Source: a virus | Lineage: Duplodnaviria; Caudoviricetes | IMG/VR virus record: IMGVR_UViG_3300032320_001415 | Location: 1 to 40,722 of that record | Strand: one strand, 5' to 3' | DNA length: 40,722 bases | Shown here: positions 3,446 through 40,722 of the stretch, one piece after another | Position numbering within the stretch: the stretch's first letter is position 1 | Layout of the letters: each line of letters starts with the position of its first letter | Program-made: the position numbers and the translations under genes | Notes under the pieces: generated by a model | Databases searched by the model: none | The model's input: only the letters and a program-made list of their open reading frames with translations | Told to the model about the DNA's origin: nothing

Positions 3446-3669
3446 CGCTGATCGTCTGGGCAGTCACGGGCGTGATCGCCGGCAGCATCGCGAAGGCACT
3501 CCTGCCGCTGCAGTGGCCCGGCGGGTGGGTGCCGTGTGCCGCTCTTGGCTGCCTCGGCAGCGTCGTCGGCGGCCTGCCGTTTGGCCAGGGGCCGGCGGGC
3601 ATGGTCGGCTCGGTCATCGGGGCTTGCGTCGTCCTGTATCTCTACACCGCATGGAGTCAGCAGCCGTGA
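3442..3669 (+). CDS. GlsB/YeaQ/YmgE-like small membrane protein
   Basis: MTLIVWAVTGVIAGSIAKALLP...G.LGSVVGG...SVIGACVVLYLY pattern. Confidence 0.75.
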   Translation: MTLIVWAVTGVIAGSIAKALLPLQWPGGWVPCAALGCLGSVVGGLPFGQGPAGMVGSVIGACVVLYLYTAWSQQP

Positions 3670-3947
3670 ACGCCACGCAGAAGAAGCTCGCCGTCGCGGC
3701 CGTCGTCCTCGTTGGCGTGACGTGGTGGTTCGCGACCGCACCTGACTCTCCGATTCGCCCAGAGCCACCGCGGCCCGACCGGCCGGTGCTCAAGTTCGTC
3801 GCGAAAATCGGCAAGCTCGCGGCACGCATCGGACTCACCGCCCTGGTCTTCATGGAGCCTGCACCGGCAGACGCCGACGAGACACAGATGGCTCACGCCG
3901 TCCTCGGCATCGACGGCCACGTGCAGCTGCGAAACGAGAGGTGGTAG
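3666..3947 (+). CDS. Membrane-anchored hypothetical protein
   Basis: GTG 3666 overlapping previous stop; KKLAVAAVVLVGVTWWF TM segment. Confidence 0.65.
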   Translation: MNATQKKLAVAAVVLVGVTWWFATAPDSPIRPEPPRPDRPVLKFVAKIGKLAARIGLTALVFMEPAPADADETQMAHAVLGIDGHVQLRNERW

Positions 3948-4241
3948 ATGCACGCCCTGTGGCACTGGCTGCTCTATGTGCTGACGTGGTCATCCGCCGA
4001 TCCCGGCGTGATTGACGCGGAGCGTGCCCGCACGGCCGGCAGCGTCAACGTCGCCTACGCTGGCCTCGCACTGGAGCCGACAAAGCCGCAGGACGTTCCG
4101 GCTGCCATCGAGCCTCCGAAGCTATGCGAGCAGTGCAGCGGCACGGGCCGCATCTACCGCCCCGATGGTGGATGGGTGAAGTGCTCCTGCGGTGCGTGCT
4201 CGGCTGATCGCTGCCAGCCGAAAGGCAAGGCGACGCGATGA
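3948..4241 (+). CDS. Hypothetical protein with DnaJ-like CxxCxGxG zinc motif
   Basis: CEQCSGTG...KCSC; N-terminal hydrophobic stretch. Confidence 0.65.
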   Translation: MHALWHWLLYVLTWSSADPGVIDAERARTAGSVNVAYAGLALEPTKPQDVPAAIEPPKLCEQCSGTGRIYRPDGGWVKCSCGACSADRCQPKGKATR

Positions 4242-29685: not shown

Positions 29686-30872
29686 AGATTCTCGCGGCTG
29701 CGTCCGCTGGTTCCTCGCCGAAGCCAGCACCGGATGCCGAGCAGGTCACGCAGCGGCGTGATGGCGACGTGCTCGAGGCACGGTCCACGAGCCGTCGAAT
29801 CAAGACGGTCGAGGATCTGCTGCGGCACATCGAGGCAGACCTTGAGCGCTACGAGGTCGCCGCCAGTGAGGCAACGAAATGGGAGTGTGCGACTGCTGGA
29901 GATGACGGCGAGCCGATCGTCACCGAGTTGCATCGTGTGTTCGTGCGTCTCAAGCCACGCGGCGGCCCGACGACGAAAGAGATCGTCGAGGCGATGATTG
30001 CCGGTGCGGCTGGCGGCATCCGCCGGCCCTTGACCAAAGCTGTCAAAGCAAAGAAATCAGACACGCATGCCGTTCTCGTCGTTGCCGACACGCACGTCGG
30101 CAAGTACGCATGGGCCGCGGGCACCGGCCACGATGACTACGACATCGCCATTGCAGCGGCACGGATCGCGGAGGCATCCGGCCACCTGCTTGACGTATGT
30201 CATTCCTACAAGCCCGCCCGCATCCTCGTCGCGTATATCGGCGACTTGTTCCACGCGGACACGCCTGGGCTGACGACAACAGGCGGCACGGCACTTGCGG
30301 GCAGCACTGATGGCCGGCTGCAGAAGATGATCAACGAGGGAACTGATGCCCTGTTGCAGATCGTGGAGAAGTCGGCCGCCATCGCACCAACTGATGCACT
30401 TGTCGTGAACGGAAACCACGACGAGACGCTGTCGTGGGCGTATCAACGCATCATGCGTGAGCGTTTCCGCAACGACCGGCGAGTCACCGTATCGGGTGCG
30501 TTCACGGGCAGGCAGTATGCGAAGGTGGGTCTCAACCTACTGGGCTTCGCACACGGGCATCGTGCAAAGAAGAAGCTGCCGCAGCTGATGGCACTTGAGC
30601 AGGCCGCGGCGTGGAGCACCTGCCCGTATCGCGAATGGCACACGGGCCACCTGCACCACCAGGCCGCCGAGTGGAGCCGCCCCATTGAGACGATTGATGG
30701 AGTGCTCGTGCGTATCGCCCCCTCGCTTTCTGCGCCAGATGACTACCACACGACGAATGGCTGGGTTGGGCAGAGAGAGGCAATGGAATGTTTTTTCTAC
30801 AACCAAGAAGGCGGGCTGCACGCCATGCACGTAGCAGGCCCGATAAGGAATGCCGAAGCAAGAAACGGATGA
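29658..30872 (+). CDS. Calcineurin-like metallophosphoesterase
   Basis: DTHVG, IGDLFH, GNHD, HGH, GHLH motifs. Confidence 0.9.
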   Translation: MAPPRRRAVEILAAASAGSSPKPAPDAEQVTQRRDGDVLEARSTSRRIKTVEDLLRHIEADLERYEVAASEATKWECATAGDDGEPIVTELHRVFVRLKPRGGPTTKEIVEAMIAGAAGGIRRPLTKAVKAKKSDTHAVLVVADTHVGKYAWAAGTGHDDYDIAIAAARIAEASGHLLDVCHSYKPARILVAYIGDLFHADTPGLTTTGGTALAGSTDGRLQKMINEGTDALLQIVEKSAAIAPTDALVVNGNHDETLSWAYQRIMRERFRNDRRVTVSGAFTGRQYAKVGLNLLGFAHGHRAKKKLPQLMALEQAAAWSTCPYREWHTGHLHHQAAEWSRPIETIDGVLVRIAPSLSAPDDYHTTNGWVGQREAMECFFYNQEGGLHAMHVAGPIRNAEARNG

Positions 30873-31584
30873 ACAGCGAGATCGAAGGCTTGCCTACTCG
30901 CGTGCTTACAAAGAATCTCCTGAGCAAAAAGAGAGGAGGCGTGAGCGAGATAGGATTCGCCAATCGAGAAAGCGTTCCTTGATGACTACAGAAGAAAAGA
31001 GAAAACACGCAGCGTGGCAATCTGAATACCAGAAAAAAAGAAGGGCGTTGCAATCTCCAGAAGAACGAAGTGCGCACAGAAGGCGGGTTTATCATAAATA
31101 CAAAAGCGATGCCTACCGTGCAGTGTCTGCTGACTACATGCGGCGCAGGCGAAGGCAAAACCCAAGTGCGGCAATAGCTGAACGTCTGCGTGCCCGCATA
31201 AAAGCTGCCACTAGGGCCGGCGGCGCAGCAAAGGCGTCTGGTATTGGTGCGACTACTGGATGCAGTTCTGCCGAGCTAAGTCAGTGGATAGAGAAGCAGT
31301 TCCTTCCAGGCATGACATGGGACAATCGGAGCGAGTGGCACATAGACCACATTATCCCATGCAGCGCGTTCAACATGACGGACGTGTCCCAGCAGCAGGT
31401 TGCGTTTCACTTCACAAACCTGCGGCCTCTATGGGCGAGAGACAACCTATTGAAGCGAGGTAAGGTGCCGGCGTATCAGCTGCGGTTTCTGTGGACATTG
31501 TGTGACATCGCGCTGGCCAGAAAACGGCTTGGGCTGCTTGCGTCGCCATCCGTACAGAGGCTGGACCGCTCCGCTATGACATAA
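30850..31584 (+). CDS. HNH-type endonuclease with basic N-terminus; paralog of 44..532
   Basis: GCS..EL..WIEKQF.PGMTWDN..WHIDHIIP...FHFTNLRPLW..DNL.K; more AT-rich than flanks. Confidence 0.8.
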   Translation: MPKQETDEQRDRRLAYSRAYKESPEQKERRRERDRIRQSRKRSLMTTEEKRKHAAWQSEYQKKRRALQSPEERSAHRRRVYHKYKSDAYRAVSADYMRRRRRQNPSAAIAERLRARIKAATRAGGAAKASGIGATTGCSSAELSQWIEKQFLPGMTWDNRSEWHIDHIIPCSAFNMTDVSQQQVAFHFTNLRPLWARDNLLKRGKVPAYQLRFLWTLCDIALARKRLGLLASPSVQRLDRSAMT

Positions 31585-38082: not shown

Positions 38083-38236
38083 CATTCGCCGAGGCACGCC
38101 ATTGCCCGAGCGGCTGCATCACGGGCCGCATTGGTCGCCAAGGGAATGGTGGCGAGTAACCGCCCAGCCGCAACCCGACTCCACGGGTGATGCGACCGCG
38201 CCGGGCGTAACCCGGCAAATACACACGGAGGTGAAT

Positions 38237-38551
38237 GTGGCACTCACGACAACGCAGGACGCGATGGATTCGCTGCCGCTCTTTGCTGCGGCAAGGCGAA
38301 CAGATCCGCAGACGTCGCACCAGGCGGCACGCTCGGCGCGATCGTTCGCGGGCGAGCATCACCAGGCGATCCTCGAGGCGCTGGCGCACGGACCTGCGGG
38401 AGCCAGCGGCATCGCGGCGCGGTGCGGGCTGCTGGCGCATCAGGTCAACAAGCGGATCGGCGAGCTTGCACGGGCTGGCAGGATCGTTGAGACGGGCAGG
38501 ACGGTGCGTAGTGCCAGTGGACGGGGCGAGAGGGAGTGGAGGTGTGCGTGA
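38237..38551 (+). CDS. Winged-helix DNA-binding protein
   Basis: ARRTDPQTSHQAA; ILEAL...IA...KRIGEL...G.I..TG...SGR..W. Confidence 0.7.
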   Translation: MALTTTQDAMDSLPLFAAARRTDPQTSHQAARSARSFAGEHHQAILEALAHGPAGASGIAARCGLLAHQVNKRIGELARAGRIVETGRTVRSASGRGEREWRCA

Positions 38552-38955
38552 GACCGCATGAAATCGAGTACTCGCGATACATCGCGAGCCACCGCTGGGC
38601 TTGCAAGCGCGACGCCCGAAAGGAAATCGACGGCCATAGGTGCCAGACGTGTATGCACGACGGCACGCTGTGGAGGCTTGAGGTTCACCACAAGACATAT
38701 GAACGATTCACGGACGAGGACGTTGATCGCGACTTGATCACCCTCTGCGTCCAGTGTCACGAAGCCGTGACGTGTGTAATCCGGTCCCGTCGGTATGACG
38801 GACAGCCGGTGCAAGTGTGTTTTGTTTCGGATGGTTCCATTTCACGAAAGGATGTGTCATATGGCATGGACGACATTGACCTACAAGATCACAGGCGACG
38901 CCCCGCTGATCATGCACAACGGGGATCTCGCAAACCCGTTGAGCAAGGCCGCTAA
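38548..38955 (+). CDS. HNH endonuclease
   Basis: Y..YI.S..W; RCQTC; LEVHHKTY; DLITLCVQCH. Confidence 0.85.
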   Translation: MRPHEIEYSRYIASHRWACKRDARKEIDGHRCQTCMHDGTLWRLEVHHKTYERFTDEDVDRDLITLCVQCHEAVTCVIRSRRYDGQPVQVCFVSDGSISRKDVSYGMDDIDLQDHRRRPADHAQRGSRKPVEQGR

Positions 38956-39487
38956 GGCGCTGAAGCAGGTGACTTCCAAGAAGAAAAAGACGGATGCCGA
39001 TTTCGAGCGAATGGCTGAGATTGAGTTCAAGGCCGGACTTTACATCGACGAAGATCGCGGCCCTGTGATCCCTGGCGAGAACATTGAGGCCACGCTCTAC
39101 AACGCTGCCAAGATCACGAAGGAAGGCAAGATCGCCAAGTCGGCCTGTTTCGTTCCGAATGCGGCGGTGCTCCAGTACGACGGCCCGCGCGACGCAGACG
39201 GGCTGTGGAACGAAGAGCGGTTCCGCAACTGCGTCGGCGTGAAGGTTGGCATGAGCCGCGTGATGCGGACTCGTCCGATCTTTCAGGATTGGTCTGCGAT
39301 CTTGGAGGTCGAGTTTGAGGACTCGGTCGTGAACGAAGAGCAGGTCGATCGCTGGGTGCATGCGGCCGGCACGCAGGTCGGTCTCTGCGATTGGCGGCCC
39401 AGGTGCGGACGGTTCACCGCCGAGAAGGTGGCCAACACGACGCCGAAGAAGCGGAAGGCGGCACCGGAGGCTATCGGCGCGGAGTGA
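38861..39487 (+). CDS. Stand-alone Cas7/RAMP-like RNA-binding protein
   Basis: RAMP-like layout: ITGDAPLIMH (beta1), PVIPGENI, RTRPIF..W, Gly-rich loop AG..VGLCDWRP..GRF; RBS AAAGGA. Confidence 0.75.
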   Translation: MAWTTLTYKITGDAPLIMHNGDLANPLSKAAKALKQVTSKKKKTDADFERMAEIEFKAGLYIDEDRGPVIPGENIEATLYNAAKITKEGKIAKSACFVPNAAVLQYDGPRDADGLWNEERFRNCVGVKVGMSRVMRTRPIFQDWSAILEVEFEDSVVNEEQVDRWVHAAGTQVGLCDWRPRCGRFTAEKVANTTPKKRKAAPEAIGAE

Positions 39488-40430
39488 TCATAACGAACTG
39501 AGGCGTGGTCGCGTCTGGTCAGTTGAGTTCTGTTCGGGTCGGGCACGGCGGGTTGGTGCTGGGCCGTGCATGTCAACCAACCACTCTCGTGATAGGCACG
39601 GAAGCATCTTCGACGGTGCGGAGTGGGGTCGGTTTAGGTCCGGTCTGGCGAGTTGTGTCAGGGTCTGTCCAGTTGAGTCTGTGCCGGTCAAGGCAACCTC
39701 TCTCATGGTCGGCATGATGCGTCTTCGATGGCGCGGAGAGGGATGCACTTAGTTAATGCTGGTTCATGTCGGTCAAGGGATGTTCGGTCCTGTTCCGGTG
39801 GGTTCTTTTTTGGCAAGTTGGCAATGTCAGGCAAATCATGGGAACCACCTGCACGGTCGGCGTGGTCGCGGCTTCGATGCTGCGAGGTGGGATGTGCTGC
39901 GGTTCGTTCAGGAACGGCACGGCAGTGCAAGGTGTGATTTTTTCCGCTACGGCGAGTCGTGGAACCACCATCGTGTTGGCACGGAGGCCGATCGACGCGG
40001 CCGTGGTGGGATGAACTAAGGCTCGTTTGGCTGAGGCTGTGCAATGCTCGGCAGTGTTAGTTGCGGCAGTAAAGGTCTGGTTATGGATGGTCTTAACTTG
40101 GCAAACAAACCACACCCGTGCAGGCACGGTTCCCGATCGACGCGGGAGGTGTGGGATGGATCGTGTTTCGGCAGCACATGTTTCGTCAGGCCGAGCCGTG
40201 TCATGTTCCGGCAGGACTTGGAACCAAGCTCGTGCAGGCACGGGGCCGGATCAACGCCGGCGGCTTGGGATCGCGGCTAGCTGGTGTTTGTTACGGCACT
40301 GCAAGGCGGTGCGTGGCATGGCTTGGTCGGGTTTGAACCGCCATCACGGTCGGCGTGGTGAGGCTTCGACGCCTCGTGGCGGGATGCGCACATGGATGGA
40401 GCGGCTGGTTGCCGTGCCATGCGAGGATTT
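39488..40430 (+). ncRNA. Non-coding guide-like array: seven structured tRNA-like repeats alternating with 5-nt-periodic GGY+NN tracts
   Basis: Repeats start at 39579, 39695, 39843, 39963, 40108, 40222 and 40336 with co-varying stems; pentamer period in between; no credible ORF. Confidence 0.8.
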
Positions 40431-40433
40431 CAA

Positions 40434-40722
40434 ATGAGTTCTTGGTTGAAAATGCGACATGACCTTGCAGACGATCCAGCGGTAATCCGACTGGCATCGC
40501 TTTGCGGGCTTGAGGAGGATGCCGTCATCGGCAAGCTCTTCCGGCTCTGGTCGTGGGCTGATCGTCACACGCGAGACGGGAATGTCGAAGGTGTCGATCT
40601 GGCCTGGGTTGATCGTTTGGCTCGGCGTGATGGGTACGGTGCCGCCCTTGTCAGGGTGGGCTGGCTTGTCGAAACAGGCGAGGGGCTGAGTTTCCCGCGT
40701 TTCGACAGGCATTGCAGCGACA
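40434..40722 (+). CDS. Phage replication initiator/organizer N-terminus (runs off window; not in ORF track)
   Basis: RBS GAGGA; MSSWLKMRHDLADDPAVIRLA...VIGKLFRLWSWAD...VGWL...FPRFDRH. Confidence 0.75.
   Translation, partial: MSSWLKMRHDLADDPAVIRLASLCGLEEDAVIGKLFRLWSWADRHTRDGNVEGVDLAWVDRLARRDGYGAALVRVGWLVETGEGLSFPRFDRHCSD

Follow-up and report, generated by a model that had tools for sequence, protein, structure and literature searches.

VIPR, published in 2026, is a class of phage RNA-guided silencing systems. Its guides consist of 9 to 16 GGY/NN pentamers followed by a structured 3′ tail, and their NN dinucleotides base-pair with DNA, passing over one target base each time (10.64898/2026.04.26.720920). 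In type II VIPR, represented by coliphage SUSP1 and a Pseudomonas fulva prophage (10.64898/2026.04.26.720920 and the available text of 10.64898/2026.04.26.720927), GGY is found in all guides. According to the available parts of a later report, the guides that SUSP1 directs against F5 satellites aim at the recombinase of this integrated parasite, where they read those positions of a catalytic motif that determine its codons; these parts hold neither a slot-level analysis nor an acquisition mechanism (10.64898/2026.10.15.759431). In the hammerhead-interspersed arrays of types I and V, a folded RNA stands between the guides (Fig. S19 legend, 10.64898/2026.04.26.720920). Finally, the accessible passages of a language-model study describe noncanonical arrays with period 5, Vipr-like folds, and triplets that are non-GGY or degenerate at one position, naming GAC, CAC, WGT, and TGH and giving no targets or repeat classes (10.64898/2026.10.21.760802).

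The window, by which we mean the whole stretch of 40,722 nt that was analyzed, carries at 39502-40433 an array that we read as a VIPR guide array because the gene upstream of it encodes a Vipr homologue. It is very probably a phage VIPR guide array, and its predicted role is the silencing of satellite-like elements integrated in a host that likely belongs to the Pirellulales. Like type II VIPR, with which it has a homologous Vipr in common, it lies downstream of genes and has tracts of 12 to 17 pentamers in which NN is free, one conserved and structured segment (about 45 nt) for each guide, and a one-base skip that falls on the wobble position, on either strand, with no self target. Unlike type II VIPR, it has a G(G/T)Y scaffold with 36% GGY, a three-way junction in ordered paralogous repeat classes where SUSP1 has a pseudoknot, seven to eight guides, a candidate HNH-domain accessory in the phage, and a likely planctomycete host. 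As in the SUSP1-F5 case, as far as the available text of that report goes, an integrase motif is among the predicted targets, and guides against rival phages have a lower self-match; in contrast to that case, several element families are matched here and are split by slot, the array position before a given repeat class (A to E1, F to E2), with SSB-like, primase, DnaB, and rep genes among the predicted targets. The folded RNA between guides recalls the hammerhead-interspersed arrays but has no Rfam hammerhead match, and the periodicity, Vipr-like fold, and relaxed triplet recall the noncanonical arrays, whose named triplets differ from the G(G/T)Y found here, although Fig. S10 of that study may include it. 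Class 1 CRISPR systems have the RAMP fold (Cas7/Csm3) and the alternation of conserved repeats with variable guides in common with this locus. Unlike in CRISPR-Cas, however, the code is gapped, the tracts are periodic scaffolds whose target matches need the skip instead of being contiguous, the repeats are diverged and ordered (average column identity of 72%, versus near identity), and the guides are apparently replaced in place and not added at one end.

An earlier note on this DNA had proposed that the triplet is a protein-bound scaffold and that the NN positions carry the information. This corresponds to the published VIPR code (10.64898/2026.04.26.720920 and the available text of 10.64898/2026.04.26.720927), in which one target base is skipped. 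Since VIPR, its code, and its use against satellites have already been published, that proposal was right but not new, and the categorical novelty that it implied falls away. The relaxed scaffold, the ordered junction repeats, the likely planctomycete host, and the coupling of slots to targets are absent from the VIPR texts found, of which figures or supplements may hold some. The locus extends the VIPR-satellite conflict to likely planctomycete phages.

The vipr cassette and its period-5 tracts

The cassette is flanked by a winged-helix gene and, downstream, by a replication initiator. Relatives without this VIPR have the two genes as well, so that the winged-helix gene is probably not part of the system. 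The features, all on the plus strand, are as follows.

38237..38551, +, winged-helix gene, cassette flank (Pfam DprA_WH, E=2.6e-4, below the cut-off)
38548..38955, +, HNH-domain gene, candidate VIPR accessory (vap) (Pfam HNH, E=4e-5)
38861..39487, +, vipr gene, 208 aa, RAMP/Cas7-like (phmmer, phrog_4652, and structure model)
39502..39576, +, guide tract 1, 15 units; predicted target E1 integrase HDLRRTGG motif, 24/30
39581..39626, +, three-way-junction repeat, class A
39627..39696, +, guide tract 2, 14 units; no target found
39697..39741, +, three-way-junction repeat, class B
39752..39839, +, guide tract 3, 13+4 units; weak predicted target E3 primase-helicase gene, 20/26
39845..39890, +, three-way-junction repeat, class C
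39896..39960, +, guide tract 4, 13 units; no convincing target
39965..40009, +, three-way-junction repeat, class D
40020..40104, +, guide tract 5, 17 units; no target found
40110..40154, +, three-way-junction repeat, class E
40160..40219, +, guide tract 6, 12 units; predicted target E2 SSB-like (DUF669) gene, antisense
40224..40268, +, three-way-junction repeat, class F
40275..40334, +, guide tract 7, 12 units; no target found
40338..40382, +, three-way-junction repeat, class G
40383..40433, +, likely decayed terminal tract, non-periodic here and intact in relatives
40434..40722, +, replication-initiator gene, downstream flank, cut by the contig end (phrog_2509, E=1e-36)

The product of 38861-39487 matched SUSP1 Vipr (PDB 36pp) in phmmer with an E value of 4.6e-32 and the phrog_4652 profile with an E value of 4e-57. 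Its predicted model had a pLDDT of 90, and the best fold matches were to Csm3/Cas7 (Foldseek against the RAMP fold, E=2.5e-5, TM about 0.5). When contact residues were numbered on the alignment of the window Vipr with PDB 36pp and set against the available text of 10.64898/2026.04.26.720927, residues H17, K33, E71, K82, R138, D177, W178, and R179 were identical to the SUSP1 residues that contact the two guanines and the DNA strands, R39 was replaced by K, and three residues of the Y3 (pyrimidine) pocket, M72, C173, and position 175, were altered. Residues H19, K35, R138, W178, and R179 were invariant across 47 Vipr homologues. Judged from this alignment, the window Vipr is a small stand-alone RAMP protein with a G-loop and a thumb, in which the predicted triplet- and DNA-strand-holding residues are mostly kept. 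The vipr 3′ end lies 15 bases from the first pentamer, and a scan of species genomes recovered no Vipr relative.

An HNH-domain gene lies immediately 5′ of vipr in all 10 close loci and in the distant locus L011 (46% identity), and is absent from that position in L012. In the window, its 3′ end overlaps the start of vipr by about 95 nt (38861-38955) in a different frame, and the alignment of relatives runs through the overlap. By linkage, the HNH protein is a candidate accessory with a putative role in target cutting or guide installing. None of the cassette genes was recognized by Pfam or PHROG profiles as a reverse transcriptase, a Cas1-like protein, or a polymerase, and no cas gene was found among the scanned proteins. 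The contig also carries portal, capsid, tape measure, and integrase genes and comes from a tailed phage that is likely temperate. Promoter and terminator scans gave hits at chance level only. Similar endonuclease VII-like matches were found at the contig start (44-529) and at 30850-31581 and may represent a gene duplicate.

The period of 5 reported earlier was real. Both pentamer parses that had been quoted agreed with the sequence letter for letter, and across 39502-40335 the match at lag 5 was 0.363 versus 0.271 in shuffles (z=6.0; 0 of 1000 dinucleotide shuffles as high), with z values of 4.3 to 4.7 at lags 10, 15, and 20 and of about 0 at lag 3. When the whole contig was scored for lags 5 and 10 combined, the top four 800-nt windows all overlapped the array. 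A phase test without a scaffold model gave z values of 6.0, 9.4, 2.6, 6.7, 7.5, 6.0, and 4.4 for tracts 1 to 7, matched or exceeded by 0, 0, 36, 0, 0, 0, and 1 of 2000 shuffles, respectively, and periods of 3, 4, 6, and 7 reached significance in no tract. The weakest tract, tract 3, is the one with the phase slip, which was located at 39817-39819, where the tract is one NN short compared with its L002 orthologue. The stretch 40383-40433 showed no significant period of 5, since 602 of 2000 shuffles scored as high. At 38083-38160 there is a weak pentamer-like stretch, which the tract finder did not call.

Entropy modulo 5 over 97 units was 0.90, 1.53, 1.24, 1.99, and 1.97 bits at positions 1 to 5, so that NN is near 2 bits; the scaffold values lean low because the parse used a scaffold weight matrix. 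The consensus of the triplet is G(G/T)Y and not the GGY-like triplet first described: 100 units of the window scaffold contain 36 GGY, 32 GTY, and 13 TGY, and GGY makes up 39.6% of 1484 units in the clade. A change in the G-loop (G176C) was considered as the cause of the GTY scaffold and rejected, relatives with the same loop carrying 53 to 95% G at position 2. The NN series had been said to differ in every tract; guides 1 and 2 have part of theirs in common. This is an offset dinucleotide run within 39502-39576 and 39627-39696, which spells part of an integrase HxLR region in both. Among related arrays, 104 tracts between repeats fell into 85 families. NN differed at 10 to 11% and the scaffold at 8 to 12% in 19 orthologous tract pairs, and one orthologous pair had the same NN at 21 of 22 bases with the same scaffold at 1 of 11 triplets; together, these comparisons indicate that NN carries selected information. 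Throughout the clade, the scaffold pyrimidine was more often C before A (289 versus 86) and T before C (180 versus 79), and a leading T of the scaffold was preceded by a purine in 123 of 144 cases.

By analogy with the published SUSP1 system, Vipr would coat each guide with one subunit per pentamer and hold the triplet, as its structures suggest, NN would pair with DNA so that every third DNA base is skipped, and the complex would bind the gene that the guide matches, be it on a satellite-like element or in a rival phage, and block its transcription, as was shown for SUSP1 (10.64898/2026.10.15.759431). The cassette would most likely be transcribed with the replication operon, and the transcript would be cut into guides of a tract plus a junction, with the three-way junction acting as the 3′ cap and processing mark of each guide. 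Guides would be replaced whole inside a fixed frame of repeats, and a slot would most likely keep its target, a spent guide being replaced and selection keeping one guide per rival. Among the points that count against this reading are the low share of GGY, although SUSP1 reads G1 and G2 base-specifically, the altered residues of the Y3 pocket, and the four window guides without a target in 176 genomes. The window Vipr is predicted to tolerate U at scaffold position 2, a property useful for guide design.

Predicted targets and the one-base skip

In relatives, the last tract is conserved and, when read with a one-base skip, corresponds to the opening codons of the rep (replication-initiator) gene of rival phages. 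A 15-base terminal-guide pattern fell on a rep gene start in 64 of its 114 viral matches, and 65 matches extended by three further bases as the guides predicted. The terminal guide of L028 matched the rep start of L007 at 22/24, against 15/24 in its own locus. In L005 (4025-4140), the terminal guide matched the rep start downstream of it at 16/20 and that of a rival at 19/20, and may weakly regulate its own phage. Because the rep gene start was present in two genome records, labelled Planctomycetia and Pirellulales, their host family of 176 genomes was chosen for the target search. The host is likely a planctomycete (Pirellulales), a prediction that draws on these two records with the rep gene of a relative and on target matches, not on the window phage itself.

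When 97 guide segments were compared with the element regions that had been fetched, 20 reached at least 18/20 with a skip of one base, compared with 0, 2, and 1 with skips of 0, 2, and 3, and 5 of 291 shuffled guides reached 18/20 or better with the one-base skip. The sites of 13 of these 20 matches lie outside every search pattern. Of 24 chosen pairs, 17 had the skipped base at the third codon position of the longest frame, where 8 would be expected. The skipped base is not copied into the scaffold, which bears no clear trace of it. Mismatches between guide and target peaked at the ends, at 0.59 in the last unit versus 0.02 to 0.16 at ranks 6 to 10.

The guide 1 pattern gave 12 matches in 11 genomes of the host family, against 0 for its reversed control. 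The best match (24/30, and 21/22 over units 4 to 14) fell on the HDLRRTGG motif of a tRNA-Lys-linked tyrosine integrase in element E1, which in genome G184 also has a rep gene and a small-terminase gene; elsewhere, HDLRRT, a common integrase motif, was matched at 22 to 23 of 30. The guide 6 pattern was found in four genomes (control, 0), where the guide matched, antisense, an SSB-like (DUF669) gene of element E2 at 21/24 in three and 20/24 in the fourth. E2 is tRNA-linked and has primase and DnaB genes. Guide 3 matched the primase-helicase gene of E3 weakly, at 20/26, and its L002 orthologue did so at 29/34; relative to the 80% match cut-off of the discovery paper, guide 3 (77%) falls below and guide 1 lies barely at 80%. 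One of two guide 3 matches (L261/L270) stands among housekeeping genes and is probably due to chance. The targets thus found sit in tRNA-adjacent integrase elements that have primase, helicase, replication-initiator, or small-terminase genes. In further integrated elements of the host family (L298, L307, and L279), guides from several slots matched excisionase-like, SSB-like, and other genes at up to 31/40.

Guides 2, 4, 5, and 7 gave nothing convincing in the 176 genomes: guide 2 had 4 matches versus 2 for its control, guide 4 had 1 with a stop in frame, guide 5 had 0 versus 4, and guide 7 had 0. No self target in the window exceeded 19/28, and no targets were found within the window or the first 12 loci. 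Contigs of related phages, about 1 Mb in all, gave no match above background for any window guide, and a match of guide 2 at the two-mismatch level fell in a noncoding frame. Exact gapped scans of viral contigs gave 12, 0, and 8 matches for guides 3, 6, and 1, none extending past the pattern, and a merged pattern of guides 1 and 2 hit four integrases, again with no extension; all of these were taken as matches by chance or to the motif only. Two early guesses, that guide 4 spells a Walker A motif and that a winged-helix gene is read by guide 1, proved unsupported. The E1 integrase and one E2 frame had no relatives in viral contigs, and no solo guides were found in the target elements.

Slot-target coupling and the replacement of guides

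When 101 guides were scored against the elements, eight exceeded the 99% null on E1, and all eight stood before a class A repeat, a slot held by 19 of the 101. Another eight exceeded it on E2, all before a class F repeat (10 of 101), while other skips gave 0 to 2 matches. On five further E1 integrases obtained by protein search, 8 of 19 class A guides matched versus 2 of 82 others. With the seed family removed, the coupling gave P values of 2.5e-4 for the new E1 homologues and 3e-7 for E2 in Fisher tests that take related guides as independent. The coupling was seen for two slots, A and F, and is not general, since E3, E4, and the L298 element were each matched from three or more slots; within slot A, 11 of the 19 guides had no E1 match.

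Slot A guides matched seven separate E1 sites on both strands, and slot F guides matched at least five separate E2 sites over more than 2 kb, all antisense. Guides of the same slot were no more alike than guides of different slots (scaffold, 18.9 versus 18.7 of 27; NN, 8.4 versus 8.2 of 18) and are therefore not mutated copies of one ancestor. Collectively, the finding that unrelated guides in two array positions match the same element family suggests that guides are replaced in place. For the origin of a guide sequence, no mechanism is given in the available text of the VIPR papers found, and with a gapped code, a guide cannot be made by pasting in a piece of the target. Because this clade combines a fixed repeat frame, swapped guides, and identified targets, templated and untemplated writing of guides predict different and testable outcomes here.

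One account, to which we give about even odds, needs no writer: in-register slippage and recombination between pentamers would alter guides, and a slot whose guide has been escaped would drift until it matches the uncovered rival again and is kept by selection, so that slot and target stay linked. Lengths shift in steps of 5, decayed guides are present (the slip in tract 3, and tract 8), and orthologous guides differ mostly at the ends, where target mismatch is also highest. Against this, no intermediates were identified, and a chance match of at least 20/24 has, by our own arithmetic, a probability of about 3e-9 per site, so that a dozen independent jumps, some with a switch of strand, would each need a long climb.

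Primed rewriting templated by the target is the less probable of the two, and we put it forward tentatively. A bound Vipr-guide complex, perhaps with the HNH protein, would fill the slot with a copy of another site in the same element, from which each third base is omitted and to which the scaffold triplets are added. The separate sites matched from one slot (seven on both strands of E1, at least five on E2) would be expected of such copying, as would guides that are unrelated within a slot while repeats of the same class are nearly identical between phages, and the HNH gene travels with vipr. However, the cassette lacks the polymerizing and Cas1-like genes sought above, the scaffold keeps no clear trace of the skipped base, the remaining slots are uncoupled, and some guides of the same slot are offset versions of each other (L003/L002 and L004/L002), which fits gradual sliding. 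The full adaptation step that this would imply, in which rewriting in place is primed by the bound element, each slot remembers one rival, the HNH protein is the installing nuclease, and the junction is an undescribed processing RNA, is similarly doubtful; if true, it would be the gapped-code counterpart of primed CRISPR acquisition. Untemplated turnover with selection thus ranks ahead of templated rewriting, and the present data do not separate them.

The three-way-junction repeat

The window tracts are separated by seven cores of 45 to 46 nt, each of which can fold into a three-way junction with stems of 6, 4, and 5 pairs. The structural pattern recovered 96 copies, with 61 distinct cores in 18 arrays, and only two places elsewhere in the window; a profile using sequence only recovered 100 copies in 19 arrays. 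The commonest loop class has 34 cores, in which 99.4% of cells are paired, a value that leans high because the cores had been picked for pairing, and 10 of the 15 pairs change on both sides, a covariation that beat all 500 shuffles and all slid controls. From phage to phage, the paralogous classes follow one another as A-B-C-D-E-F-G, with some of them lost and a few additional ones present. The junction is thus a structurally conserved segment that caps each tract. Rearranged arrays speak for either side as the one to which the repeat belongs: the guide of L032 goes with its 3′ repeat and that of L004_2987 with its 5′ neighbour. In addition, eight arrays (L003-L007, L026, L028, and L029) finish in a tract with no repeat behind it. 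The L007/L009 array is interrupted after repeat C, where about 300 nt containing an open frame are inserted ahead of the following tract.

The junction also occurs alone. A lone copy without a tract stands before the ribosome-binding site of rep in 10 of 64 rep loci of relatives, making it an unclassified phage RNA fold that is found before replication genes as well as in arrays. Such copies were located at L196:7657-7708, L201:4091-4142, L204:13142-13193, L215:4338-4389, and L231:12885-12936 and in L117 and L165. The fold was present in 2 of 151 host-family genomes, in one of them on a phage contig; one such copy is L287 (G108:C178:492-544).

These lone copies raise the possibility, which we consider rather unlikely, that the junction is an autonomous processing element recruited from the rep leader, either a new self-cleaving ribozyme or a signal for a host RNase, and plays a hammerhead-like part. 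In two of the lone copies, the junction contains an additional hairpin and retains both loops. The sizes of the loops covary, being 4+7 or 5+6 in 59 of 61 cores, and many arrays have tracts at both ends. However, Rfam gave no match for the repeat and no ribozyme family at E values up to 1 or up to 5, the junction strands are short and variable, the 61 cores showed no covariation for a loop-loop pair of the kind a pseudoknot would need, and the lone copies may be remnants of deleted cassettes. The core motifs of the hammerhead are absent from the junction cores.

The earlier note had also held that a period of 5 is incompatible with codon structure and that the tracts are no simple satellite, and both statements were borne out. 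Distances between neighbouring repeats are flat modulo 3 (29/25/23 for 77 distances in 18 arrays), so no reading frame is kept across arrays, and 54 of the 77 fall into two classes modulo 5. A simple satellite or coding repeat without guide function is accordingly very improbable: chance open frames of 113 to 162 codons overlap the array and four guides have no target, but tblastn matches of these frames to relatives are fragmented, and such a repeat does not account for the flat spacing, an NN entropy of about 2 bits, skip-specific targets, and a Vipr neighbour.

Arrays of other kinds were seen in related loci. In L229, L082, and L173, the site between the winged-helix and rep genes holds GGC-only tracts of 26 to 32 or more units without junction repeats; L229, the one of the three that was checked for it, has a second, distant Vipr there (3619-4182, minus strand; phrog_4652, E=8e-9; PDB 36pp, E=0.0015). 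Two forms of VIPR thus appear to compete for the same genomic slot. In L051 (4034-4776) and L050, a Vipr with 41% identity is followed by a second gene and then by a GGA/NN array with a different repeat, in which 48 of 59 scaffold units are GGA.
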